A DNA stretch of 64,000 nt from an uncultured candidate division Zixibacteria bacterium. Lineage in GTDB: Bacteria; Zixibacteria; MSB-5A5; UBA10806; 4484-95. The notes below the pieces were generated by a model that searched no databases, had not been told where the DNA came from, and worked only from the letters and a program-made list of their open reading frames with translations. The DNA lies in contig CAXXKA010000008.1 of NCBI GenBank assembly GCA_963668625.2, positions 1,216,001 through 1,280,000 on the forward strand, written 5' to 3'. The position numbers and the translations under genes were made by a program. Below are positions 12,076 to 24,105 of the stretch, one piece after another. Each line of letters begins with the position of its first letter. The first letter of the stretch is position 1.

Positions 12076-13035
12076 TCAGATTTCGATTTCAGCTATTTTA
12101 TCGGGGGTGGGTTTGGCGTTGCCCAGTCCCATCTCCTGGCCAAGAGCGATATATCCGAAATCGCTCGGTTGTTTGCTCAAAAAGCGGGTTGCATAAGCGT
12201 CGGCAGCCACCTGGTCGGTGGATGCGATGATGGTGTTATGCGTTATGACATCATCTATACGCCCGCCGGTTGGGCCGTTGCGTTGAAGCACGCGGGTAGC
12301 ATCCTCAATCGTAAGAGTAGCCGGGAACAGCCGGGTAAGCTCTGCCAGGTTCATATCTATCCCCTGGTGAAGGCGGTTACGCGGTCCGGTCAGCGCTCCG
12401 AACCAGTTTTTCATCGCGCCTGTCATCCCGGAAAGCCCGTGATGTTTTACCACCGGCACGTTGAACAGCTTATCGCATTCGAGTATCGGTTTTAGTACCT
12501 GCCATTTTCCCAGGCTCTCCAGTCCGAAATCTACCTCGGTGAAATCGTTATCACCAGCGATTATGACCTCGGCGCCGCTTTGCTCGGCGGCCTCTTTGAT
12601 TCCCGAACGATTATACGTTCGCCGGGCGCTGTTACAGGTAACATCGATGACAACCACACGACCCGCGCCGGCTTTGAGGCACAACTCCACCAGCTCACTG
12701 ACAACATCGGGGTGAGTGTTGGCGCCTAACTCGGGTGTTCTATCCCAACCGATATTGGGCTTTATACATACATAATCGCCTTTGGACACGAAAGCACCGA
12801 TACCGCCAAGCGCCATGATTGCGGCGGTGGTGATTGCGCGCCAGTCTTTACCTTTGGCCGCAACTAATAGTGGATGAGAGGGATCGATATCTACAGAGTA
12901 ATTTTTAGGTGAATAGATTTTAGATATGATGTCATCCTCGTCTCGGCGGTTACCGAGTAACCATACTCCACCACCGATGACGGCTGTTGCCGCCGCCGCT
13001 TTGGCCGATTGCACGATAAATTCACGTCTTTTCAT
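12076..13035 (-). CDS. DUF362 domain protein with a twin-arginine signal/anchor
   Basis: MKRREF followed by a hydrophobic segment. IKPNIGW, NTHP, NVPVVKHH and GAMKNWFG motifs. Confidence 0.85.
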   Translation of the reverse strand: MKRREFIVQSAKAAAATAVIGGGVWLLGNRRDEDDIISKIYSPKNYSVDIDPSHPLLVAAKGKDWRAITTAAIMALGGIGAFVSKGDYVCIKPNIGWDRTPELGANTHPDVVSELVELCLKAGAGRVVVIDVTCNSARRTYNRSGIKEAAEQSGAEVIIAGDNDFTEVDFGLESLGKWQVLKPILECDKLFNVPVVKHHGLSGMTGAMKNWFGALTGPRNRLHQGIDMNLAELTRLFPATLTIEDATRVLQRNGPTGGRIDDVITHNTIIASTDQVAADAYATRFLSKQPSDFGYIALGQEMGLGNAKPTPDKIAEIEI

Positions 13036-13231
13036 GATGCTCCCAGGCAAGGTTTAGGCGAAAATTTACGGATTTCAAACTGTTTCAAATATGATTATAG
13101 CTTTATTACATCATTGTCAATAATAAAGTTATACGATTATATACGGTTTATCCTACAATTTTATGCGAAATACTTAGTACCTAACCAAATATTAATATCC
13201 CCCTCCAACTCCCGATAGATAATAGAAAGTC

Positions 13232-13260
13232 TTGACATACATAGCGTCAATTCTTATTTT
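13232..13260 (+). promoter_or_regulatory. Sigma70-type promoter of valS
   Basis: TTGACA-17 nt-TATTTT, followed by SD aagga. Confidence 0.6.
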
Positions 13261-13286
13261 TGCGGTCTGATTGAAAGGACATAGTT

Positions 13287-15959
13287 ATGGTCGATATTCC
13301 AAAAGCGTACGATCCGAAGACAGTTGAGGACAGAGTCTACCAGAAATGGCTGGACGCCGGTATTTTCCACGGTGATGTCAATGCCGACAAGAAGTCCTAT
13401 TCAATAGTTATACCGCCGCCGAATGTCACGGATGTTCTGCATATCGGGCATGCCCTGAATAACACTCTTCAGGATATTCTTATCCGCTGGAAGAGGATGC
13501 ACGGGCAGGAGGCCGAATGGCTGCCGGGTGTGGATCATGCCGGTATTGCCACCCAGGTCGTGGTGGAAAAAGCATTAGCCCGCGAGGGACGGTCTCGTCA
13601 CGATATAGGCCGCGAGAAATTCGTTCAGAAAGTATGGAAATGGAAAGAGGATAAATTCGAGCGGATCATTAACCAGTTGAAAAAGATCGGCTGTAGTTGC
13701 GATTGGGATCGAACACGATTCACCATGGATGAGGGCTTATGCAAAGCCGTTATCGAGGTGTTCGTTCAATTGTACGAGAAAGGTCTGATCTATCGCGGCG
13801 AGCGAATCGTGAACTGGTGCCCCGATTGCCTGACCACGCTTTCGGATGATGAAGTCGAGCATGAGGAAATCGATTCTCATCTCTGGTACATTAAGTATAA
13901 GATAAAAGGCTCCGATGAGTTTTTGACCGTGGCCACTACCCGTCCCGAAACCATGCTGGGCGATACGGCCGTGGCGGTTAATCCCGGGGATGAGCGATTC
14001 AAAGACTACATAGGTAAAGCGGCTATCCTGCCGATCATGGATCGCGAGCTGCCGATCGTTGGTGATGAGTATGTCGATATCGAGTTCGGTACCGGCTGTG
14101 TTAAGATCACTCCGGCGCATGATCCCAACGATTTCGATATCGGAATCCGTCACAGCCTGGAGCGTATCAATATCATGAACCAGAATGGTACGTTAAACGA
14201 TAACGCCGGAAAGTATGCAGGTATGGATCGTTACGAAGCGCGCCGTATACTGGTCGAGGAGCTTAAAGAAAAAGGTTATCTCGAGAAGATCGAGGATTAC
14301 AACCTCACCTCGGGTACTTGCTATAGATGTCATACGGTTGTCGAACCGCTCATATCCAAGCAGTGGTTTGTCAAGATGCGCCCCCTGGCCGAGCCGGCGA
14401 TCGCCGCGGTTAAGGAGGGGCGGGTCAAGTTCCATCCCGAGCACTGGGTAAAGACATACCTTCACTGGATGGAGAATGTTCGCGACTGGTGTATCTCCCG
14501 TCAATTGTGGTGGGGGCATCGCATTCCCGTTTACTACTGTGATGATTGCGATGAGGTGATGGTCGCTCGCAGCAAACCCGAAACCTGTGCCCGCTGCGGC
14601 AGCAAGAATATTACGCAGGATAACGATGTGTTAGATACCTGGTTCTCCTCGTGGCTATGGCCATTCTCGACTTTCGGTTGGCCTGATAAAACCCCCGAAC
14701 TGGAGAAATTCTTCCCGACAAGAGCCCTGACAACCGCCTCGGAAATTATCTATCTTTGGGTTGCCAGAATGATTATGGCCTCGCTGGAGTTCATGGGCAC
14801 CGAGCCTTTCGCCGATGTTTACATTCATGGCACGGTCAGGGATGGTGATGGTATCAAGATGTCCAAATCGCTGGGTAACGGTATCGACCCGCTATTGATC
14901 GTTAAAGATTACGGCGCTGATGCTCTTCGTGCCTCGATTATTTTAGCTACGCCCGAGGGGCAGGACCCGCATATATCCGAAAAGACATTCGAGCATGGCC
15001 GTAATTTCGCCAATAAAATTTGGAGCGCCTCGAGATTCGTGCGTATGAACCTGGGCGAGACCAGGCTAACCAAAGATATAGATTTCACCGATGAGAACCT
15101 GGAGATGCCGGATAAGTGGATATTATCCCGTCTGGCAAAATCTATAGGGCTTGTCAATAATTACCTTTCCAGTTTCAAATTCTCCACGGCCGCCAAAGCC
15201 GCTTACGATTTCGCCTGGAACGATTTCTGCAGTAACTACCTGGAAATGATCAAACCTCGCTTGAAACCCGAGAAGAACGGTGATAAGGCCGCTGAAGTCT
15301 CCGCCCGCGCGGCGCGACTGGTAGCCGGTTACGTGCTCACTCGTATTCTCAAGCTGCTGCATCCGTTTATGCCGTTTGTCACCGAGGAGATATGGGGATT
15401 GGTGCTGGAGGATGAGGATAACTCGATGCTGGCCTCGGAGAACTGGCCCGAGCCGAGATTGAAATATATCGATGAGGAACTCGAGGGTTCGATGCAGAAA
15501 GTTATCGAGTTGGCCGAGAAGGTTCGTATCGCCTGTGGTGAACTGGCCGTTCCGCCCGCCAAGAAACCGAAAGTACTGGTCAAATGCGAAAACGATGAAC
15601 TGGTGAAGATTTTCGAAAATCACTCACCGGAGATTCGTAACCTGGCCCGTTCGGGAGAGGTGGAGGTTGGCCGCGATATCACCAAGCCGCCGTTATCGGC
15701 CTCGGCCGTAGTGCCCGGCGCGGAGATTTACATTCCGCTAGAGGGACTTATCGATATCGAGCAGGAGAAAACCAGGCTCGAAAAACAGCTCGAGGAGAAA
15801 ACCGGCTATCGGATCAAACTGGTGAAAAAACTGTCCAACGAGGATTTCGTCAAGCGCGCTCCGGCCGAGGTGGTCGAGTCAGAAAAAGCCAAGCTGATAA
15901 AAACCGAGGAATTGATAGAAAAGTTAAATAAAAACCTTGAATCTCTTTCCGGTTGGTAA
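13287..15959 (+). CDS. valS: Valine--tRNA ligase
   Basis: PPPNVT..LHIGH, DHAGIATQ, TTRPET, DWCISRQLWWGH, KMSKS, C-terminal coiled coil. Confidence 0.98.
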   Translation: MVDIPKAYDPKTVEDRVYQKWLDAGIFHGDVNADKKSYSIVIPPPNVTDVLHIGHALNNTLQDILIRWKRMHGQEAEWLPGVDHAGIATQVVVEKALAREGRSRHDIGREKFVQKVWKWKEDKFERIINQLKKIGCSCDWDRTRFTMDEGLCKAVIEVFVQLYEKGLIYRGERIVNWCPDCLTTLSDDEVEHEEIDSHLWYIKYKIKGSDEFLTVATTRPETMLGDTAVAVNPGDERFKDYIGKAAILPIMDRELPIVGDEYVDIEFGTGCVKITPAHDPNDFDIGIRHSLERINIMNQNGTLNDNAGKYAGMDRYEARRILVEELKEKGYLEKIEDYNLTSGTCYRCHTVVEPLISKQWFVKMRPLAEPAIAAVKEGRVKFHPEHWVKTYLHWMENVRDWCISRQLWWGHRIPVYYCDDCDEVMVARSKPETCARCGSKNITQDNDVLDTWFSSWLWPFSTFGWPDKTPELEKFFPTRALTTASEIIYLWVARMIMASLEFMGTEPFADVYIHGTVRDGDGIKMSKSLGNGIDPLLIVKDYGADALRASIILATPEGQDPHISEKTFEHGRNFANKIWSASRFVRMNLGETRLTKDIDFTDENLEMPDKWILSRLAKSIGLVNNYLSSFKFSTAAKAAYDFAWNDFCSNYLEMIKPRLKPEKNGDKAAEVSARAARLVAGYVLTRILKLLHPFMPFVTEEIWGLVLEDEDNSMLASENWPEPRLKYIDEELEGSMQKVIELAEKVRIACGELAVPPAKKPKVLVKCENDELVKIFENHSPEIRNLARSGEVEVGRDITKPPLSASAVVPGAEIYIPLEGLIDIEQEKTRLEKQLEEKTGYRIKLVKKLSNEDFVKRAPAEVVESEKAKLIKTEELIEKLNKNLESLSGW

Positions 15960-16118
15960 TATATTTACGCCCGCGTTTATTAAACTTGACGTATTCCTGA
16001 TCCGGGCGGGCACAATATAAATTGCTCACAATAGTAACTCGCCGAGAAACGAACTTCACGAGATTTCATCGAGCGGTTTTCGTGGGCACACGATTTTGAA
16101 TAAATACTGCGTTTAGTG

Positions 16119-16145
16119 AGGCGGTTTGATCAAGCCGCCTTTTTT
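16119..16145 (+). terminator. Rho-independent terminator
   Basis: aggcggttt-gatc-aagccgcct followed by a T-run. Confidence 0.85.
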
Positions 16146-16208
16146 ATTTGTACTTGCGGAGTGATATGGCGTTTATTATTTTGTGAGCTATAAGCTAAGG
16201 GGTTAGTT

Positions 16209-18962
16209 ATGGAAAAACTTTCAGCATCACAGTTTGCTCGAAAATTAAAAGATCTTATATGTAATGATACTGATAGGAAAATGGTTTTCTTTCTAGGTTC
16301 AGGCTGCTCAGTAAGTTCAGGTATCGGGGATGCCGCTACGCTTGTGAAAAGGTGGCTGCCTCGTTATAAAAAGATAATAACAGGTGATGAAAAGAATTAC
16401 ATTGAATGGGCAAAAGAAAAGTTTCCGGGATTTAATGGAGAAAATTTATCATTCATCTATAAAGACGTAATGGAAAAACTGTTTCATAGTTTAGAGGAAA
16501 GACAAGCAGAAACAGAGGACATCTGTCGAAATAAAGCTCCGGGATTTGGATACGCGGTTTTAGCGCAATTACTTTCTCACAGTAAGTATGGAAAGCATTG
16601 CAATATTATATTAACAACTAATTTTGATGATATAATGGCTGACGCTCTATATTTATTTACGAATGATAAGCCTTTGGTGATCGTTCATGAGTCTTTGATT
16701 AGCTATGTTAAAATTAATTACACCAGACCTTTAATTGTTAAACTTCATGGAGATGCTAGGATTTATCCAAAACATACAGAGGGTGAAACAACAGACTTTG
16801 AAAAAAATGTAAAAGAAAGTGTTAAAAAATTGCTGGTAGAATCAGGCCTTATTTTTATTGGATATGGAGGCAATGACTCAAGCGTATATAATATAATCAA
16901 TAGTTTGCCGCCCGGTGCGCCGCCAACCGGAATTTACTGGGTTGGGAACTCAATCCCAGACACTGACTTAGGTCGAGAGTTAGTGAAAAGGAATGTCGTG
17001 CATGTTGATCATTTTGATTTTGATGAGTTAATGCTATTTATTAAAAACGAATTTGAGTTAGAAAAGCCAAATAAAAAACGTATTGAGAATATTTTTGATA
17101 ACTATAATGAGAAATTTAAAAATTTAAACAAAAAAATATTTAGTAGACCGGAAACTCCTGAAAATGATGAGCTTGAGAAAGCTGCAGATAAAGCTGCCAA
17201 AGAATTTAAAGACTGGTATTCTGTATTGCTTGAAGCTTCTAAATTTGAGAAATCAGAACCGGATAAGGCTGATAATATCTTCAAAAATGGATTCAAAAAG
17301 TTTCCAGGAAGTGTAGAATTGAATGGAGCTTATGCTATATTTTTAAAGGATATTCGCAAAGACTATGATCGGGCGGAAGAGTATTATAAGAAGGCTTTAG
17401 AGCTTGATCCTGACAATGCCATTGTTCTAGTAAATTATGCTAATTTTTTTCAGAATATTCGCAAAGCCTATGACCGGGCGGAAGACTATTATAAGAAGGC
17501 TTTAGAGCTTGCTCCTGATAGTGCCAATGTTCTAGGAAATTATGCTTTATTTTTACATACTATTCGTAAAGCCTATGACCGGGCGGAAGACTATTATAAG
17601 AAGGCTTTAGAGCTTGATCCTGATAATACCATTGTTCTAGTAAATTATGCTATATTTTTAAAGGATATTCGCAAAGACTATGACCGGGCGGAAGACTATT
17701 ATAAGAAGGCTATAGAGCTTGCTCCTGATAATGCCAGTGTTCTAGGAAATTATGGTAATTTTTTACAGACTATTCGCAAAGACTATGACCGGACGGAAGA
17801 CTATTATAAGAAGGCTTTGGAGCTTGATTCAGATAATGCCAGTATTCTTGGCAATTATGCATTATTCTTACATGAAATTCGTGGAGACTTTAACCGGGCG
17901 GAAGACTATTATAAGAAGGCTTTGGAGCTTGATTCAGATAATGCCAGTATTCTTGGCAATTATGCATTATTCTTACATGAAATTCGTGGAGACTTTAACC
18001 TAGCAGAAGAGTATTATAGGAAATCTATAGAGCTTGCTCCTGATAATGCCATTGTTCTAGGAAATTATGCTATATTTTTAAAGGATATTCGCAAAGGCTT
18101 TGAGCAGGCGGAAGACTATTATATGAAGGCTTTGGAGCTTGCTCCTGATAATGCCAGTGTTCTAGGAAATTATGCTAATTTTTTACAGACTATTCGCAAA
18201 GCCTATGACCGGGCGGAAGACTATTATAAGAAGGCTTTAGAGCTTGCTCCTGATAATGCCAATGTTCTAGGAAATTATGCTAGCTTTTTAGATGATATTC
18301 GTAAAGACTATGACCGGGCGGAAGACTATTATAAGAAGGCTTTGGAGCTTGCTCCTGATAATGACAATGTTCTAGTAAATTATGCTATCTTTTTAGATGA
18401 TATTCGTAAAGACTACGACCGGGCGGAAGACTATTATAAGAAGGCTTTGGAGCTTGATCCTAATAATGCCAGTGTTCTAGGAAATTATGCTATATTTTTA
18501 AAGGATATTCGCAAAGCCTATGACCGGGCGGAAGACTATTATAAGAAGACTATAGAGCTTGATCCTGATAATGCCAATAATCTAGGCAACTATGCAGGCT
18601 TTTTACTAGCTCAAGGGAGGCGTGATGAGGGCAAGGAGTATCTTTTTAGAGCGATGAATGACGCTGCAATCCGAGATTTAATCTTAGAATGCAAATTCTA
18701 TTATTATGTGCATATTGATTTTGGCAGTGAGCAGAATATCTATTTAAAAGAAATTAAGAAGTTAATATTAGATAATATTAGATCGCCTAACTTCAACCTT
18801 ACCGATAATGTCAACCGCGCTATTAAGGATGGCCACCCGGAGCCGGAGTTCTTGAAACTGCTGGCTAAGGTTATAGCTGATGAAGTGGATGCTAAAGAGT
18901 TGGATAAATTCGAGGTTTGGCGTAATACCACTATTGATGGTGAAGATGAATCTAAGCAGTAA
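16209..18962 (+). CDS. SIR2-like (SIR2_2) domain protein with a TPR repeat array; putative NADase defence/sensor protein
   Basis: [22 protein letters not shown] and FIGYGGND sirtuin motifs, then twelve 35-aa TPR-like repeats. Visibly AT-richer than the flanks. Confidence 0.88.
17331..18590 (+). repeat. Intragenic tandem array, 12 x 105 bp plus a degenerate 13th unit
   Basis: The Tyr codon of (N)YA recurs at 17331, 17436, 17541 ... 18486, 18591. The core gaagactattataagaaggct..agagcttg is nearly invariant. Confidence 0.95.
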
Positions 18963-18979
18963 TTATTTATAGATCAACT

Positions 18980-19582
18980 ATGCAAACCCTCTCCCAAATC
19001 ACCGAACCCGAGGTTATCCTCGAGTTCCTCAATGCCGAGATCGGCTCGCCCAGGTGGGCCTCAGAGCTTGAACAGCTATTGCAGCAGGAGGGATATGATA
19101 AGTCGCTGATATCAAGGGGCGATACCTCGGACGATACAGAGAATGCTGTTCGCAAGGAGATACTATATCAGTTCCGTGACTGCGAGGATAAACGTCATTT
19201 CCATGGATTGCCGGAGGATATCGTCTGGCATACCACATTGCTATCCGGGGAGGATATTGCCAAGCTTCGATATATGAACTATCCGTTCTGGGTGAATCTA
19301 TCAGGCTGGTCTCGACTCGCTATTGAGGGTGCCGGTAATCTCGAGCGCGCGGGTGTCCGCTCCGATTTAGTTAATCATATTAAACAGACCGCAAAACTTA
19401 TCATCGAGCGGGAAACTCTTCCGAGAATAATACTGCTGGCTAAAAGCATAAAGGACGATCCGGTGATATTAGAGGGGCATATACGAGCTACCGCGTATTG
19501 CTTGAATATCGAGAAGATGTCTGGAAGTATCGAGGCGATTGTCGGCTACTCGAAAAATATCGAAAGCTGGAAATGGTATTGA
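18980..19582 (+). CDS. Hypothetical protein with a ParB/Srx-like motif
   Basis: 200-aa ORF. 'PRIILL...VILEGHIRATAY' resembles the ParB/sulfiredoxin [DE]GxxR motif. Confidence 0.55.
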   Translation: MQTLSQITEPEVILEFLNAEIGSPRWASELEQLLQQEGYDKSLISRGDTSDDTENAVRKEILYQFRDCEDKRHFHGLPEDIVWHTTLLSGEDIAKLRYMNYPFWVNLSGWSRLAIEGAGNLERAGVRSDLVNHIKQTAKLIIERETLPRIILLAKSIKDDPVILEGHIRATAYCLNIEKMSGSIEAIVGYSKNIESWKWY

Positions 19583-19621
19583 TAAGCATTTGCTTACACT
19601 GACTGACTACTGATAATTGAC

Positions 19622-19652
19622 GGATTGCTTCGTCCGCTTCGCTACCTCGCAA
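19622..19652. repeat. REP-like element (GATTGCTTCGTC...CTCGCAA class)
   Basis: ggattgcttcgtccgcttcgctacctcgcaa, with a related copy at 20218-20247. Confidence 0.55.
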
Positions 19653-19677
19653 CAACAGGTTTATCAAACGGCAAGAG

Positions 19678-20073
19678 TTACTGGCTGATACGTGATTTTA
19701 TCCAATCCTCACCCAGCATGGTCTCCGCCTCGCCCTCGGCATCCTCGACATACTCCAGTGGCACGAGTATCAGGTATCCACCGCCAATCGGCCGGAACGA
19801 GCCGAATCCCAACTGGCCGGTGACCCCGAAATGACCGGTCTCGGATATCATCATGGCGGGGATATCCTTAGCTTTGAGCCCCTCTATCACCATCTCGGCG
19901 TACTGGTTGGAGGTAAGCCGGGCCAGCGGCTGCCAGTTCTCGTAGCCGGCGCTGATATCGTCGTCATCGACTTTGATCTCCACCGGCAGTTGATCGACCA
20001 GTTGCTCATCGCAGTCGGGGCATTTGTATATGCCCTGCTTATATTCGTATCTGCATTTCGGACAGAACGGCAT
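19678..20073 (-). CDS. Zinc-ribbon plus DUF2007-like (putative signal-transducing) protein
   Basis: MPFCPKC..EY...CPDC...LV, then A.M....L...IPA..., 'ILVP...EDA'. SD aggag. Confidence 0.75.
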   Translation of the reverse strand: MPFCPKCRYEYKQGIYKCPDCDEQLVDQLPVEIKVDDDDISAGYENWQPLARLTSNQYAEMVIEGLKAKDIPAMMISETGHFGVTGQLGFGSFRPIGGGYLILVPLEYVEDAEGEAETMLGEDWIKSRISQ

Positions 20074-20133
20074 GAGGTCTCCTTTTAATATACTATACGG
20101 GAAAATCGGTTAAATATTCAAATATAAATTATC

Positions 20134-20286
20134 GTGGTCAGAGTATATCCGCTTGCTGTAACTGGTTTACTGTAGCCTGTACCGGCGGATGAGGAGGGGA
20201 TATCTAATTAGCAGGCAGATTGCCGTGTCGCCTTCGGCTTCTCGCAAGCTGCCCCATCTCAGGCTATCATCGTGAGGTGGGGCAGC
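20134..20286. repeat. Cluster of degenerate REP-like elements and a 14-bp stem hairpin
   Basis: aactggttt...ccggcggatgagga (related to 6683-6720), agattgccgtgtcgccttcggcttctcgcaa (related to 19622), and gctgccccatctca/tgaggtggggcagc (20248-20286). Confidence 0.5.
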
Positions 20287-20439
20287 CCTGGATTATTAAA
20301 TTGTAGTGCTTATAAGATTGCTTTTCCCAGGCTGTAAGCTTTGATTGACAGATACTCCTATTGGAAAGCGAGCAGGAGAGCCAACCACGAATATCGACAA
20401 CTAAATTGACAGTTCGATACAGATTATTGACTATATCAC

Positions 20440-20469
20440 TTGCAAGCAGGCCCGGTTTGTTCTTATAAT
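20440..20469 (+). promoter_or_regulatory. Putative sigma70 promoter
   Basis: TTGCAA-18 nt-TATAAT upstream of SD aggagg. Confidence 0.5.
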
Positions 20470-20526
20470 CTATCAAAATGAGAATAATTAACCGGTATTA
20501 CCGGAGTTTCTAATTAGGAGGATAAT

Positions 20527-21507
20527 ATGCCGCTTCTACTTAACCGTGATGATGTTATAAAAGTACTGGATATGCGCGATTGTATGGATGTCGTCGAAAA
20601 AGCATTTGCTGAACTGGCTAACGGTACCGCCGTATTGCCTCTTCGTATTAATATAACACCCCCTGACGGCTTGGCCTTGTATATGCCGGCTTATTTGAAA
20701 GAGTTAGGCGCGCTGGCCTGTAAAGTCGTTACCGTATATAAGAATAACCCGAAAGCCCACGATATGCCAACCACTATCGGCAAGGTGCTATTGCAAGATC
20801 CGGCTACCGGCGATGTTATCTGTATCATGGATGGCGGCTATCTGACTGCTGTCAGGACAGGTGCGGTCTCCGGTGTGGCTACCAAGTATCTGTCTCGTGA
20901 ATCCAAAGGTCAGGTTGCCGGGATATTCGGCGCCGGGGTACAGGCCAAGATGCAACTCTGGGCTGTAGCCGTGGCTCGCGATTTGAAAAAAGCTTATGTT
21001 TATGATGTTTCCCCTGAGGCGGCCGGTAGTTTCAAAACCGATATGAGCAATAAGCTTAACCTCGATATCGAGATAGCCGGTTCGGCCGGCGATATTATCA
21101 ATAATTGCGACATTATTTGCACCGCTACCTCCGCGCCGGAGCCTATTTTCGATGGCAACACGGTGAAAGACGGCGCGCATATCAATGGAATCGGCAGCCA
21201 TACGCCAAACGCTCGCGAGCTGGATACGGCAATAATCAAGCGCTCGAAATTCATTGCCGACTCGTATGAGGCCTGCCTGAAAGAGGCCGGCGATATCATG
21301 ATCCCGATACAGGAAGGCGCGATCGATAAAAATCACATGTTTGCCGAGTTGGGCGAGGTAATTACCGGCAAGAAACCGGCGCGCGAAAACGATTCGGAGA
21401 TCACCCTGTTTAAATCAAACGGTCTGGCTATTCAGGATGTCGCCACGGCTAAGCTGATATACGATAAAGCGGTAGCCGCCGGTATCGGGCAGGATGTCAA
21501 TATCTAA
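20527..21507 (+). CDS. Ornithine cyclodeaminase / mu-crystallin family (archaeal-type alanine dehydrogenase-like)
   Basis: MPAY, KVVTVY..N, LTAVRTGA, GIFGAGVQA, HINGIGS, RELD, FKSNGLAIQDVA motifs. Confidence 0.9.
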   Translation: MPLLLNRDDVIKVLDMRDCMDVVEKAFAELANGTAVLPLRINITPPDGLALYMPAYLKELGALACKVVTVYKNNPKAHDMPTTIGKVLLQDPATGDVICIMDGGYLTAVRTGAVSGVATKYLSRESKGQVAGIFGAGVQAKMQLWAVAVARDLKKAYVYDVSPEAAGSFKTDMSNKLNLDIEIAGSAGDIINNCDIICTATSAPEPIFDGNTVKDGAHINGIGSHTPNARELDTAIIKRSKFIADSYEACLKEAGDIMIPIQEGAIDKNHMFAELGEVITGKKPARENDSEITLFKSNGLAIQDVATAKLIYDKAVAAGIGQDVNI

Positions 21508-21578
21508 CGGCGGAAATATTCGGCTGTTTTAAAATCTATATTTGTTGCCGGCTATGGGCCTTAAGTGAACTATTTCAC

Positions 21579-21607
21579 TTGCATTTAAGTATCTATTTGC
21601 ATAATAT
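21579..21607 (+). promoter_or_regulatory. Putative sigma70 promoter with an adjacent operator-like palindrome
   Basis: TTGCAT-17 nt-TAATAT. Palindrome aagtgaa-ctat-ttcactt at 21563-21580 touches the -35 box. Confidence 0.5.
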
Positions 21608-21675
21608 TCGTCGTTGGAATATTATTGCGTCTCCAGGCGTAATATGGTATAAACGATAAACCCTGGAGGTAAATT

Positions 21676-23052
21676 ATGTTGAGAAATTTAACCGCGATTT
21701 TAGTATTAGGTCTGGCTGTCATAGCTTTTGCCGGGGATGATCCCGGAGTGTCTATCACTATTTATAACAATAACCTCGGGCTGGTTAAGGATGTCCGCGG
21801 GTTGGATATTCAAAAGGGTGCCGGTATCCTCGATTTCGATGATGTCGCCTCGCAAATCGATCCCACCAGTGTTAATTTCCGCTGCCTCGATGACGACAAC
21901 GTAGCGGTGCTGGAACAGAACTACCTCTACGATTTAGTATCGACCGAGGCGTTGTTGAAACGCTATCTCGGCAAGCAGATAGAGATAATCGGTGAGGATG
22001 ATACCCGGTTCAAAGGCGAGCTGTTATCGTTCGATAATCGAGCTGCCATTATTAAAGAAGATGGCGGTCAAATCGTGATGATCTCCATGGATAAGCTGAT
22101 AAATGGTCGTTTCCCGTCACTGCCCGAGGGTTTGATAATAAAGCCGACTCTTCGCTGGGAACTGGAATCGAACTCCTCCGGCAATAAAAACTGCGAGGTC
22201 AGCTACCTGACAAGTGGTATTCAGTGGAATGCCGATTACGTGGCGGTGGTAAACGATAAAGACACGAAGCTTGATCTATCCGGCTGGGTGACTATCAACA
22301 ACAGTAGTGGCGCCTCGTACGAAAACGCTAAGCTGAAACTGGTAGCAGGTGATATTCATCAGGTAACCACGCCGCAATTTGATAGGATGGAGATGTCTTT
22401 AAACAGGTCTGGCGCTAAAGCCGCACCACAGTTCGAGGAGGAATCGTTTTTCGAATATCATCTCTACACGCTCAACCGTCCCGCTACGGTAAACGATAAA
22501 GAGATCAAGCAGCTTACGCTGTTCCCCACGGCACAAGCCAAAGTTAAGAAAGTATATATATTCAATTCCCGACCTTCATATTATAGCCGGGGTAGCGATA
22601 AATCCAAAGTCAGAGCTAATCTTGAATTCGATAATACTAAATCAGCCGGCCTGGGGATGCCACTGCCGAAAGGTAAACTTCGCGTTTACAAAGAGGACTC
22701 GCAAGGTGCTCTGCAATTTGTCGGTGAGGACCAGATCGATCACACACCCAAGGGTGAGAAGGTGCGTGTGTATCTCGGGGATGCTTTCGATATTACCGGC
22801 GAGCGTAAACTAATTAATGTTGAAGACCTGGGCGGAGACCGTCGCCGTGAGACTGTCGAGGTTACTCTAAAAAATCATAAAGATGAGGATGTAGTAGTCA
22901 CGGTGGTGGAACGTGCCAGTGGTTGGCGTGAATGGAAGATAGAAAACTCCAGCCATGAATATCGCAAGGTCGATAATTCTCAAATAGAATTCGATTTAAA
23001 TGTTAAAAGTAACGATGAAGAAACTTTAAATTATACAATACAATACTTCTAG
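21676..23052 (+). CDS. DUF4139 domain secreted protein
   Basis: Signal peptide. ITIYNNNLGLVKDVR, IDPTSV, EQNY.YDL, SYLT.G..W.ADY, EYHLY, GMPLPKG..RVY and GED.IDHTP motifs. Confidence 0.85.
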   Translation: MLRNLTAILVLGLAVIAFAGDDPGVSITIYNNNLGLVKDVRGLDIQKGAGILDFDDVASQIDPTSVNFRCLDDDNVAVLEQNYLYDLVSTEALLKRYLGKQIEIIGEDDTRFKGELLSFDNRAAIIKEDGGQIVMISMDKLINGRFPSLPEGLIIKPTLRWELESNSSGNKNCEVSYLTSGIQWNADYVAVVNDKDTKLDLSGWVTINNSSGASYENAKLKLVAGDIHQVTTPQFDRMEMSLNRSGAKAAPQFEEESFFEYHLYTLNRPATVNDKEIKQLTLFPTAQAKVKKVYIFNSRPSYYSRGSDKSKVRANLEFDNTKSAGLGMPLPKGKLRVYKEDSQGALQFVGEDQIDHTPKGEKVRVYLGDAFDITGERKLINVEDLGGDRRRETVEVTLKNHKDEDVVVTVVERASGWREWKIENSSHEYRKVDNSQIEFDLNVKSNDEETLNYTIQYF

Positions 23053-23061
23053 AACGGAGGG

Positions 23062-24105
23062 ATGATGAGTAAAAAATTAATTTTAGGGTTGGCTCTGGTT
23101 TTAGCGGCGATATTTATTTTTGGCTGTCAGCCCAAGGAATTAAGAACTGTTAAGATCGAGCTGGGTACCTGGAAGAAACCGAAATCCAATCCGAGTATCG
23201 AAAGGGTAAAAGAAAATCTCGCTAAAGCGGAGAATACGACGCCTAATAATCCCGAGGTATATTTCCTGTGGGGACGAGTCTATGCCATGGAAAATAATTA
23301 CGAGGAAATGGATAAGTCCTGGGATAAATGTGATGAGCTTTCTGATGCTTTCGATGCCAGCATGGATACATTGCGGATGATGGAATGGGATACGCTTTTC
23401 ATCCAGAGCGCGGTTAAATCTTATCAGAACGGTGATTACGAAGCGGCCCTGGATAAATCGCAAAAAGCGATTATTTGTTGGGAGCATAACTATCAACCAT
23501 TCCTTTACGGCGCGGATGCCGCTTATCGCCTGGGAAACAATGAGCTTGCTTATGATTTGTCCAAAGCAGGTTACGAGGTTTCCCCCGACACGATTACGAT
23601 GGCAAGGTTGTATGCCGAGATGTGTTTCGTGAGTGATAAGCTCGATGAGGCAAAAGGTGTATTCGAGAAACTGATTGTCAATGACGCCACGAACGCCGAC
23701 TACTATTTCAATCTTGGAGAGATTGACCTGGCTCTGGGCGATACCACGAGAGCTCTCGAGTATTATGTACAGGGTTTGGATAAAGATAAGGATAATCCGG
23801 ATGGTTGGCTCAATATCGCAAAGCTGTATTTCCTGCTCAAGAAGTATCCGGAGGCGGTTGATGCATTCGAACATTTCAAATCACTGGCTGAGACTGTCGG
23901 CAAGGATGATATGTTCTTATACCTGCTTGCGGTATATCAGGTAAAGGACTACGAAAAAGCAAGAGCCGAATTGGAAGTTTTCACTATGGAAAATCCGGAC
24001 TATTGCGAGGCCTGGCAGCTACTCGGTAACTGCTACGTTCACTTGCAAAAGAATAAGGAAGCCAGAGCGGCTAACGATAAATACGACGAGTGTGTCGGCC
24101 AATAG
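23062..24105 (+). CDS. TPR-repeat lipoprotein
   Basis: Lipobox IFGC and several divergent TPR motifs. Confidence 0.75.
   Translation: MMSKKLILGLALVLAAIFIFGCQPKELRTVKIELGTWKKPKSNPSIERVKENLAKAENTTPNNPEVYFLWGRVYAMENNYEEMDKSWDKCDELSDAFDASMDTLRMMEWDTLFIQSAVKSYQNGDYEAALDKSQKAIICWEHNYQPFLYGADAAYRLGNNELAYDLSKAGYEVSPDTITMARLYAEMCFVSDKLDEAKGVFEKLIVNDATNADYYFNLGEIDLALGDTTRALEYYVQGLDKDKDNPDGWLNIAKLYFLLKKYPEAVDAFEHFKSLAETVGKDDMFLYLLAVYQVKDYEKARAELEVFTMENPDYCEAWQLLGNCYVHLQKNKEARAANDKYDECVGQ

Follow-up and report, generated by a model that had tools for sequence, protein, structure and literature searches.

Organization of the locus

Between valS and a DUF4139 gene, the window (the whole 64,000-nucleotide stretch that was analyzed) carries an open reading frame whose product, here called SIR2-TPR, consists from N to C terminus of a SIR2 domain, two linker helices, twelve 35-aa TPR units and a conserved C-terminal cap (Table 1). 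The full-length AlphaFold2 model had a mean pLDDT of 93.6 and a pTM of 0.73, and the 12 full units had a degenerate unit on either side, with helix pairs visible in the model. The intact sirtuin-like motifs that the first-pass annotation of this DNA had placed at the N-terminus were located at residues 30-38 (GSGCSVSSG), 135-140 (TTNFDD), 178-182 (KLHGD) and 218-223 (GYGGND). Its helical linker corresponded in the model to two helices of about 48 residues, the only elements between the SIR2 and TPR parts, and the absence of a Walker A/STAND NTPase that it had reported agreed with the best 25 of 27 Pfam matches, none of which was of that kind. The annotation was also right in describing the gene as AT-richer than valS (GC3 of 0.31 vs. 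0.61) and as lying directly after a terminator, since a hairpin was found between the valS stop (15959) and the start of the gene. Third-position values in the flanking genes ranged from 0.51 to 0.72, and overall GC was 0.32-0.39 along the gene vs. about 0.50 in the flanks. The DNA stretch was found in three public runs of DNA type, all from one study, and no RNA run was among those listed.

Table 1. Coordinates of the features at the SIR2-TPR locus, in positions of the window.
Feature	Positions	Strand	Basis
Variable insertion region between valS and DUF4139 gene	15960..21675	.	Adjacency in relatives; cargo
Terminator-like hairpin and T-run closing valS	16118..16151	+	10-pair stem, 5 GC pairs, T-rich tail
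Whole SIR2-TPR gene	16209..18962	+	Open ORF; 917 aa plus stop; AlphaFold2 model
SIR2 (SIRim-type) catalytic domain, predicted, residues 1-285	16209..17063	+	Pfam, PADLOC, Foldseek, VIA, invariant residues
Two long linker helices, residues about 286-333	17064..17207	+	Model helices 289-312, 317-331
Degenerate N-terminal capping TPR-like helix pair, residues 334-368	17208..17312	+	Model helices 336-344, 351-364
Twelve highly internally conserved 35-aa TPR units, residues 369-788	17313..18572	+	TRF, unit alignment, model
Degenerate 13th unit and family-conserved helical C-terminal cap, residues 789-917	18573..18959	+	Family alignments

Genomic context and evidence for horizontal acquisition

In addition to SIR2-TPR, the variable region contained orf200, a 131-aa ORF on the minus strand and an ornithine cyclodeaminase gene. 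In 13 relatives the site was empty, with only about 50-180 nt separating valS from the DUF4139 gene. Other relatives carried different cargo at the same site, namely PD-Lambda-5 A and B in genome G006 (4.4e-135 and 1.2e-120) and an nSTAND_NTPase5-TPR gene in genome G001. Strong matches to SIR2-TPR were restricted to 3 of the 40 relatives and were found in neither of the two genomes of the same genus; the gene was single-copy in the source genome, with no second copy found, and its tree intermixed phyla. The horizontal acquisition that had been proposed for this gene is thus upheld by its foreign composition, single copy, patchiness, empty site in 13 relatives and phylum-mixing tree.

The flanks of the gene in the window are housekeeping (valS, ornithine cyclodeaminase, priA). 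No integrase, transposase, att-like repeat or tRNA gene was found flanking it; the search for att-like direct repeats and mobile-element genes around it returned only weak, chance-level pairs, and an Rfam scan of positions 13000-22000 gave no match at E<=0.1. Among homologs, no conserved neighbour was detected in 524 ORFs at 75 loci. This result and the NTPase-free Pfam profile fit the earlier description of a single-gene system. The candidate partner orf200 was discounted because it could be placed in no Pfam or PADLOC family, matched nothing in the neighbourhoods of homologs and had no counterpart in the 40 relatives.

Association with defence genes was assessed within five ORFs on either side of homologs (PADLOC, E<=1e-15). 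Matches were obtained for 16 of 282 ORFs at 41 loci vs. none of the 41 other ORFs of the window (Fisher p = 0.24), most of them to partial domains (mad2/mad3, a protease domain, helicase cores, RmuC), and no complete known defence system adjoined a homolog at these 41 loci. The defence-island check that the first-pass annotation had called for therefore gave a divided answer: the valS|DUF4139 site itself holds PD-Lambda-5 or nSTAND-TPR genes in relatives, but no clear island emerged at the 41 loci.

The SIR2 domain

The domain matched Pfam SIR2_2 (PF13289) over residues 133-235 with 42.2 bits, vs. a gathering cut-off of 24.5, and the PADLOC Aga_SIR2 profile at 1.6e-27. In the sequence search of solved structures the SIR2-APAZ chains of SPARSA were the sole matches (2e-10), and the SPARSA chain 8y80_E was also the best structural match, both with Foldseek (E 2.2e-14) and with VIA (Z 27.0, rmsd 6.0, 291 aligned residues). 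The first 29 VIA rows (Z 27.0-16.4) were all entries of SPARSA, KomC, ThsA, DSR2, SIR2/HerA and Avs5, with Z values of 20.9 for KomC, 20.4 for ThsA, 17.7 for DSR2, 17.0 for SIR2/HerA and 16.4 for Avs5. The first canonical sirtuin, Hst2, followed at rank 30 (Z 16.4), and the order obtained with Foldseek agreed. The earlier assignment to the anti-phage NADase type thus holds for fold and sequence, the nearest relatives being SPARSA, ThsA, KomC and DSR2.

Residues N138, D140, H180 and G218 were invariant in two family alignments (113 of 113 and 60 of 60 sequences), and Y219 was invariant in the former and present in at least 90% of the latter. The motifs containing N138, D140 and H180 aligned with TTNFDD and KIHGD of the SPARSA SIR2. 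N138 and H180, in the TTN.D and.LHG motifs, are presumably the catalytic Asn and His, as in DSR2 and ThsA. By its Pfam match, its predicted fold nearest to anti-phage SIR2s and its retained catalytic-type residues, the domain is classed here with the immune-type SIR2s termed SIRim (bioRxiv 10.1101/2024.09.18.613514). The domain is a putative NADase; its fold by itself does not settle the chemistry, and Z values of 15-16 were still obtained with canonical deacetylase sirtuins.

When the N-terminal 350 residues were modelled as a homodimer, an ipSAE of 0.48 was obtained vs. 0.08 for the best control, a score that may mirror likeness to solved SIR2 oligomers. Of the proteins solved as one-chain pairs, 20 of 30 attained this mark, compared with 1 of 23 among those solved as single chains. 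Runs shared at least 76% of contacts, with a partner pLDDT of at least 79, and the predicted symmetric interface comprised residues 285-333 together with 110-116, 141, 148-154 and 272-280, so that the linker helices made up most of it. A homodimer formed through the linker helices is therefore model-supported.

The TPR array

Tandem Repeats Finder delimited the array at 17330-18595 (period of 105 nt, 12.1 copies, 86% matches, no indels), and a separate repeat search recovered 12 copies spaced 105 nt apart. Identity between units averaged 84% at the nucleotide level (range 69-95%) and 72% at the amino acid level. The "12 nearly identical repeats" of the first-pass annotation are consequently correct as to number and high internal conservation, although "nearly identical" is slightly generous. 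Repeats with high internal conservation (HIC; TPR, ANK, WD) of fungal NLRs are defined in Dyrka et al. 2014 (PMC4986451) by more than 85% identity across at least 100 residues. Only 21 of 1269 windows of 105 aa reached 85% or more in our array, whose best self-match was 86.7%, and the array therefore falls within that definition, though only marginally. This best match, at an offset of seven units, joins units 2-4 and 9-11, which resemble a block duplication. Synonymous divergence between units (pS about 0.19) and a dN/dS of 0.74 over all 35 columns indicate that the array is not very young, and no second array of similar type with which units could be exchanged was found in the source genome.

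Variation within the array was concentrated in helix A, with the highest column entropies (1.7-2.0 bits) at unit columns 2, 9, 12 and 13. In 37 other family proteins with at least five units, the most variable columns were 2, 3, 9, 12 and 13. At these five columns, which were thus defined on other proteins, dN/dS in our array was 2.96 vs. 0.48 at the other 30 columns (Nei-Gojobori counts pooled over 66 unit pairs that are not independent). The Pfam TPR_1 alignment placed residues 384-403 on profile positions 15-34, so that unit columns and canonical TPR positions share the same numbering from 1 to 14. The hypervariable positions 2, 9, 12 and 13 accordingly coincide with part of the concave ligand face, given as positions 2, 5, 9, 12, 13, 33 and 34 in PMC1261162. 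The proposal that the array is a diversifying recognition surface gains from this concave-face variation, from the dN/dS contrast and from the one-unit differences between alleles described below.

Family, repeat number and distribution

SIR2-TPR belongs to a large, unnamed family spread over many phyla of bacteria and archaea. At E<=1e-3, 2,321 cluster representatives were retrieved, from at least 18 phyla and including methanogens and Asgard archaea. The family was very common in anaerobic sediment lineages of both domains. Unit number ranged from 0 to 13, with medians of 4 in one set of 120 proteins and 3 in 136 new representatives, and arrays with low internal identity (29-41%) also occurred. 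Of 100 pairs of proteins whose N-terminal domains were at least 80% identical, 60 differed in unit count, a polymorphism shown at the level of the family. The proteins P0010 and P0011 were identical at 559 of 562 positions besides one exact 35-aa indel. Comparing repeat number among homologs, as had been suggested, thus showed that it varies, down to near-identical alleles one unit apart.

The same SIR2 clade was also found fused to ankyrin repeats and to FGE-sulfatase, PPIase and HATPase_c domains. Used as query in a word-index search, the C-terminal cap (residues 789-917) gave 17 matches among 179 candidates at E<=1e-5 (the query and 16 others), all with SIR2_2, and no alternative effector was detected on the cap at the sensitivity and length range of that search. 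Look-alikes of the C-terminal part in the ESM Atlas, with SIR2 clusters skipped, were generic TPR clusters only, with no other effector heads. In Haloferax virus Halfgib1, and likewise in an integrated virus of Vibrio, distant relatives adjoined integrases; 21 plasmid records also carried relatives, at no more than 36% identity.

In the literature, the term "SIR2-TPR" was not found in the main texts searched; supplementary tables (e.g. PMC9122126 S1B and S5B, and those of the SIRim preprint) may list such architectures. Searches combining SIR2 and TPR with anti-phage or NADase activity returned only work on STAND-containing Avs/SAMD9, DSR2, pAgo and FAM118, and nothing relevant on "TmcB" and TPR was found to explain the Pfam name TPR_TmcB.

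Comparison with known systems

The design principle is not new, because DSR1/DSR2 already combine SIR2 with a helical-repeat sensor in one protein. DSR2 of Bacillus subtilis (PDB 8z18, 8wyb) shares with SIR2-TPR an N-terminal SIR2 of NADase type and a C-terminal alpha-solenoid sensor in a single protein, with neither NTPase nor partner gene, and its SIR2 superposed with an rmsd of 3.7 over 239 residues at the Z value given above. Its sensor is a fixed HEAT-like solenoid, whereas that of SIR2-TPR is a regular 35-aa array with a hypervariable groove and rapid copy-number change. Identity with full-length DSR2 (SIR2, MID and a C-terminal tail-tube-binding solenoid) was rejected: no DSR1 or DSR2 model was among the seven PADLOC matches (E<=0.01), DSR2 chains were absent from the sequence matches to solved structures, and the fold matches covered only model residues about 2-285. 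With the full-length model as query, DSR2 was not among the 50 listed Foldseek matches, all of them TPR superhelices (OGT, SPINDLY, consensus CTPR) with that of O-GlcNAc transferase as the best, and no full-length structural analogue in the PDB was among these 50.

SPARSA SIR2-APAZ (PDB 8y80, 8jl0, 8jkz) has the nearest SIR2 by sequence, PADLOC profile and fold, but the profile match was limited to the SIR2 part (residues 21-270 on profile positions 17-275 of 1010), and SIR2-TPR has repeats where SPARSA has its APAZ/Ago nucleic-acid sensor. Membership of that system was rejected, as the protein lacks APAZ and no PIWI, MID or PAZ was among the Pfam matches of 14 flanking proteins (5648-28330). 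Avs5 (SIR2-STAND-TPR, AVAST type 5; PDB 9nc9, 9jap) likewise pairs a SIR2 effector with a C-terminal repeat sensor, but drives oligomerization through a central STAND NTPase; in its place SIR2-TPR has only the two-helix linker, and an Avs/STAND NLR-like identity was rejected on the Pfam result reported above. Thoeris ThsA (PDB 7uxt, 8bto) shares the SIR2 NADase fold (Z 19.7-20.4) and a logic of activation by oligomerization, yet reads a small-molecule signal via a SLOG domain and requires ThsB; it was rejected since neither SLOG nor TIR domains were found in SIR2-TPR or its neighbours.

Fungal NLRs resemble SIR2-TPR in high internal repeat conservation, repeat-number polymorphism and diversifying concave TPR positions (PMC4986451). 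They differ in carrying NACHT or NB-ARC between effector and repeats and in forming eukaryotic multigene families that exchange repeats, whereas SIR2-TPR is prokaryotic, single-copy and devoid of an NTPase, with no second array in its genome.

Interpretation

Since the repeats vary at ligand-facing positions and are joined to a SIR2 of immune type, SIR2-TPR is probably a one-protein immune sensor-NADase of DSR2-like design with a fast-changing sensor. The SIR2 domain would be an NAD+-consuming enzyme, inactive at rest and probably held as a dimer via the linker helices. The TPR superhelix, made of 12 regular units and caps, would offer a concave groove lined by the hypervariable helix-A residues at canonical positions 2, 9, 12 and 13. 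Into this groove a foreign protein or peptide would bind, its most likely source being a virus or other mobile element. Binding would alter the oligomeric or conformational state and switch on NAD+ breakdown, and the infected cell would then stop growing or die (abortive infection), as in DSR2. Specificity could shift fast through gain, loss and reshuffling of 35-aa units, combined with substitutions at groove positions. Inferred elements of this scheme are the NADase chemistry, the kind of ligand (a phage ligand included), the mode of activation, the anti-phage activity and the immune outcome.

It is unlikely that SIR2-TPR is instead a non-immune, ligand-gated SIR2 switch that would regulate dormancy, stress or cell-cell recognition and not sense viruses. 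In such a switch the TPR part would bind a protein or peptide of the cell itself, and the SIR2 part would consume NAD+ or modify a protein by deacylation or ADP-ribosylation. Such a role would suit the housekeeping flanks in the window, the mostly ordinary neighbourhoods of homologs without conserved defence context, the alignment of canonical sirtuins at Z 15-16 and the frequency of the family in anaerobic sediment bacteria and archaea. Against it, anti-phage NADases, and not deacetylases, supply all of the best matches in fold and in sequence, no CxxC pairs of the sirtuin zinc module were visible in residues 1-285, and the gene is patchy, compositionally foreign and placed at a variable hotspot; moreover, unit gain and loss between near-identical alleles and the groove dN/dS of 2.96 would be expected of an arms race more than of binding to one unchanging partner in the cell.

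Still less probable is that repeat conservation arose neutrally, through tandem amplification in the recent past and slippage or gene conversion, and is not an adaptive means of changing specificity, with the array serving perhaps as a mere scaffold or oligomerization arm. An overall dN/dS below 1, the apparent block duplication, the few units of many family members and the existence of arrays with low internal identity are all in line with this possibility. It does not, however, predict the dN/dS contrast between the five columns and the other 30; these columns are also the variable ones in the arrays of 37 other proteins, and they coincide with canonical concave ligand-contact positions. Finally, a role mainly as mobile-element cargo for inter-element competition or as an addiction module (anti-plasmid, superinfection exclusion) in place of chromosomal host defence seems very improbable, given the lack of any integrase, transposase, att-like repeat or tRNA gene in the flanks, even if distant relatives occur beside integrases and on plasmid records and a short Argonaute system, SPARSA, provides the nearest solved relative; as the mechanism would be the same, it is a variant of the one-protein sensor-NADase and no true alternative to it.

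More tentatively, and with some doubt, the one-protein sensor-NADase could be generalized to a pan-prokaryotic class of NTPase-less immune receptors, in which the SIR2 killing head stays constant while a cassette-like TPR array directs it, re-programmed by gain, loss and shuffling of 35-aa units and by substitutions at four groove positions. Such a class would be a prokaryotic counterpart of the diversifying fungal NLR repeats that works with no nucleotide switch. On this wider reading, ligand-templated rearrangement of a dimer or oligomer alone would suffice to gate a SIR2 NADase, and the arrays of the family would amount to a natural library of designable binders tied to a lethal read-out. 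Should the immune reading fail, a large SIR2-TPR family would still have been defined. If it holds, the single-protein SIR2 defences would gain a family that is very widespread and has had no name. The fungal NLR strategy of conserved repeats with hypervariable contacts would then operate in prokaryotes without a STAND NTPase, and the origin of repeat-receptor specificity, together with its coupling to an effector, would become directly testable. The regular, CTPR-like array also suggests a reprogrammable binder-to-killer scaffold.

Anatomy of the SIR2-TPR gene

The first-pass annotation had described a sirtuin-like domain fused directly to a TPR array, and this observation was confirmed as a real feature. 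The reading frame is intact, and its 917-residue translation carries all of the SIR2 motifs named earlier: GSGCSVSSG (residues 30-38), TTNFDD (135-140), KLHGD (178-182) and GYGGND (218-223). Pfam assigned SIR2_2 to the protein (42.2 bits vs. a cut-off of 24.5) plus many TPR families, and the reported absence of an NTPase held among the best 25 of the 27 Pfam matches listed. The 12-repeat array was likewise recovered, both by Tandem Repeats Finder (period 105 nt, 12.1 copies, 86% matches, no indels) and by a separate repeat search (12 copies, spacing exactly 105 nt); the next-best array similarity in the genome was 32%. The gene is AT-rich as noted (GC 0.32-0.39 vs. ~0.50 in the surroundings; GC3 0.31 vs. 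0.51-0.72 in seven flanking genes), and a terminator-like hairpin parts it from valS.

Coordinates of the SIR2-TPR gene, its neighbours, the cargo found at the valS|DUF4139 junction of relatives, and viral relatives
Feature	Location	Strand	Description
Junction cargo in the window	15960-21675		5.7 kb: SIR2-TPR, orf200, 131-aa ORF, ornithine cyclodeaminase gene
Terminator-like hairpin	16118-16151		between valS and SIR2-TPR gene
SIR2-TPR ORF	16209-18962	+	intact, 917 residues
Capping unit before array	residues 334-368		degenerate
Tandem array	17330-18595		nucleotide level
Full TPR units	residues 369-788		12 units of 35 aa, protein level
13th unit and helical cap after array	residues 789-917		unit degenerate
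orf200	18980-19582	+	200 aa
131-aa ORF	19678-20073	-	two CxxC pairs near N-terminus, zinc-ribbon-like
TPR protein	23062-24105	+	347 aa
Junction cargo in G006	L016		PD-Lambda-5 A and B (PADLOC 4.4e-135 and 1.2e-120)
Junction cargo in G001	L017		nSTAND_NTPase5-TPR protein, at contig end
Junction cargo in G004 and G008	L103/L105		class-I methyltransferase
Junction cargo in G007	L117		IS200-like fragment
Viral SIR2-plus-helical-domain protein	L099 2062-3729		Haloferax virus Halfgib1
Viral SIR2-plus-helical-domain protein	L100 1354-3228		Vibrio phage 10N.286.55.B4_PE002

The SIR2 head and its predicted dimer

An AlphaFold2 model of the head (residues 1-350, 113-sequence alignment) reached pLDDT 88.8 and pTM 0.85. 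Among PDB structures, Foldseek ranked the SIR2-APAZ chain of the short Argonaute system SPARSA first (8y80_E; E 2.2e-14, TM 0.66), followed by ThsA, KomC, DSR2, SIR2/HerA and Avs5. VIA also gave SPARSA the highest score (Z 27.0, rmsd 6.0, 291 aligned), with KomC at 20.9, ThsA at 20.4, DSR2 at 17.7, SIR2/HerA at 17.0 and Avs5 at 16.4, while canonical deacetylase sirtuins appeared at rank 30 at the earliest (Z ≤16.4). SPARSA SIR2 chains were the sole relatives in a sequence search of solved structures (2e-10), and the alignment brings TTNFDD and K[LI]HGD into register. In the PADLOC scan of the protein, the 7 matches included no DSR model, and the best of them covered the SIR2 region of proteins associated with short pAgos (1.6e-27; residues 21-270). 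N138, D140 and H180 did not vary in either family alignment (113 and 60 sequences), and presumably correspond to the catalytic Asn and His described in the DSR2 and ThsA literature on SIR2 NADases.

Prediction of residues 1-350 in two copies gave an ipSAE of 0.48 vs. 0.08 for the best control, and so passed its controls. Of proteins solved as same-chain pairs, 20 of 30 had reached this ipSAE mark, against 1 of 23 single-chain ones. Contact agreement between runs was at least 76% and partner pLDDT at least 79. The predicted interface is symmetric and consists mostly of linker helices 285-333, which in the two-copy model pack on helix 272-280 and residues 110-116, 141 and 148-154, adjoining TTNFDD. 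The prediction supports self-association of the head as a putative symmetric homodimer, and the pass may reflect likeness to known SIR2 oligomers, since such oligomers have already been solved.

Family size and repeat turnover

A word-index search with residues 1-330 retrieved 662 proteins at E ≤1e-3 (504-1605 aa, the closest 59% identical), and SIR2_2 and TPR families were present in nearly all of the 120 matches listed. Exhaustive HMMER searching of 50%-identity representatives returned 2,321 at E ≤1e-3, 1,471 at 1e-10 and 386 at 1e-30. The source records of the proteins from the word-index search simply label them "tetratricopeptide repeat protein" or "SIR2 family protein", or give them misleading TPR names.

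Using an HMM built from the gene's own 12 units, at least one unit was counted in 116 of the 120 listed proteins (SIR2-TPR protein included; median 4, maximum 13; protein length tracking unit count, r = 0.89) and in 105 of 116 new representatives of at least 450 aa. The SIR2-TPR gene lies at the top of this range, its 12 full units and degenerate 13th giving 13 HMM matches. The comparison of repeat number proposed in the first-pass annotation revealed a variable trait: unit count differed in 60 of 100 protein pairs whose N-terminal 340 residues were at least 80% identical, and the homologs P0010 and P0011 matched at 559 of 562 residues apart from one exact 35-aa insertion, that is, one unit. 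Repeat number in the family changes fast.

In 11 representatives of at least 450 aa this HMM found no unit. In the C-terminal part, five of them each have a different domain type (ankyrin repeats, FGE-sulfatase, PPIase, HATPase_c and phosphoglucomutase), four have TPRs of other types and two have no Pfam family, so the SIR2 head has also been combined with other sensor-like modules. Over the head, the non-TPR fusions (P0237, P0225, P0188, P0197 and P0157) show 36-45% identity and fall within the same SIR2 clade, and the phosphoglucomutase fusion may be a gene-calling artefact. The C-terminal cap occurred only alongside SIR2_2 (17 of 17 matches among 179 candidates, a search of limited sensitivity).

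Groove positions of the repeat arm

In the full-length model (pLDDT 93.6, pTM 0.73) each unit forms helix A (columns 1-15 of the 35) and helix B (columns 18-31) of an unbroken solenoid. No full-length structural analogue was found in the PDB, where the best matches were superhelical TPR structures, namely the TPR domain of O-GlcNAc transferase and designed consensus TPRs. Ten columns were invariant across the 12 units (Y7, F10, I14, R15, E22, Y24, Y25, K27, E30 and L31), and entropy was highest at columns 2, 9, 12 and 13 (1.7-2.0 bits). The Pfam TPR_1 alignment set residues 384-403 on profile positions 15-34, with the 35th residue of the unit as an extra loop residue, so that the first 14 unit columns share their numbering with canonical TPR positions 1-14. 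Magliery and Regan (PMC1261162) list positions 2, 5, 9, 12, 13, 33 and 34 as the most variable, lining the concave face, and 2, 5, 6, 9, 12 and 13 as ligand contacts.

Within the arrays of 37 other proteins with at least 5 units, columns 2, 3, 9, 12 and 13 varied most, and the pattern is thus a property of the family. Applied to the SIR2-TPR gene, these externally defined columns gave a dN/dS of 2.96 vs. 0.48 at the other 30 (0.74 across all 35), as pooled Nei-Gojobori counts over 66 non-independent unit pairs rather than as a formal site test. The array only marginally reaches the "high internal conservation" defined by Dyrka et al. (PMC4986451) (best 105-aa self-match 86.7%; 21 of 1269 windows at least 85%).

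Horizontal acquisition and genomic context

The SIR2-TPR gene is single-copy in the 4.3-Mb genome. Of 40 relatives, 3 gave a strong match (E <1e-90); the two same-genus genomes (96% and 89% complete) gave none. A contig search yielded 171 relatives, of which 80, spanning many bacterial and archaeal phyla, were kept. A FastTree phylogeny of 74 N-terminal domains (73 of 75 focal genes, at least 330 aa, plus the SIR2-TPR protein) needed 35 phylum-label changes (minimum 17; shuffled mean 52.4); its well-supported mixed clades included one that joins bins of Halobacteria and Desulfobacteria and one that joins a bin of Gammaproteobacteria to Methanosarcinaceae, with the caveat that MAG contigs may be mis-binned. 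In the first pair (loci L020 and L021) the heads are ~81% identical, and in the second L028 clusters with L031/L033 at 100% local support; this cross-domain likeness points either to an inter-domain transfer of very recent date or to mis-binning of the contigs. Low GC3, patchy occurrence, an empty site in relatives and the phylum-mixed tree agree with the horizontal acquisition first proposed.

The empty junction (valS, ~50-180 nt, DUF4139 gene, TPR gene, priA) was seen in G005 plus 12 genomes related at the level of order or class (G010-G013, G015-G021 and G024; G016 covered in part, at a contig end). Within the bacterial family of the window the cargo differs among genomes, and the junction is an insertion hotspot there. 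Among the contextual evidence, a defence role is best supported by this shared position, which in other genomes holds a catalogued defence system or an NLR-like gene.

Among the local neighbours, orf200 starts 17 nt past the SIR2-TPR stop and is host-like in composition (GC 0.49, GC3 0.56). It had no Pfam or PADLOC family, was found in none of the 40 relatives searched and had no match among homolog neighbours; it is an orphan accessory gene, possibly co-transcribed with SIR2-TPR. A 45-residue fragment homologous to the 131-aa ORF lies between valS and PD-Lambda-5 in G006, and on a different contig of G001 a full homolog adjoins the ornithine cyclodeaminase gene. The 347-aa TPR protein, whose DUF4139-TPR-priA synteny is kept across the order and which had only a weak PADLOC match (PDC-M71B, 3.9e-6), is the product of an ordinary conserved gene and bears no relation to the SIR2-TPR array.

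The focal gene was located in 75 of the 80 loci. The 524 ORFs within a narrow span of 5 ORFs either side held no recurrent partner family (largest cluster 5 loci, scattered positions), and the SIR2-TPR gene therefore appears to act alone. PADLOC, run on the first 282 of 482 neighbour ORFs of at least 100 aa (41 loci), matched 16 at E ≤1e-15, most over partial domains, and the only specific-looking ones were PDC-S09 (L034), AbiEi (L064) and a BrxHI/Lhr-like helicase (L020); no complete known defence system adjoined the homologs in this set. Within this span no clear sign of the suggested defence-island association emerged: the match rate of the homolog neighbours did not differ significantly from that in the rest of the window (16/282 vs. 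0/41; Fisher p = 0.24). The PADLOC models may lack sensitivity for uncultured lineages like these.

Distant relatives (29-34% identity, other helical C-terminal parts) adjoin integrases in two integrated viruses; the Vibrio phage protein is annotated "pAgo__SIR2APAZ", with no Argonaute in the flanking features shown. Relatives also occur on 21 plasmid records (identity ≤36%).

Relation to known systems and proposed mode of action

SPARSA contains the nearest SIR2 to this head, whereas the SIR2-TPR protein lacks APAZ and Argonaute. Avs5 and fungal NLRs resemble it in effector-plus-repeat logic but differ in that it has no NTPase. Membership of the DSR2 family was excluded, there being no profile or sequence match beyond the SIR2 fold; the likeness to DSR2 would lie in the mode of action. 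The main texts of the literature searched yielded no account of a SIR2-TPR family that lacks an NTPase.

The best-supported reading, which we regard as fairly probable, is that of a DSR2-like, one-protein abortive-infection sensor. The SIR2 head would be a dimeric, autoinhibited NADase gated by a foreign protein bound in the TPR groove, and specificity may evolve through unit turnover together with substitutions at the groove positions.
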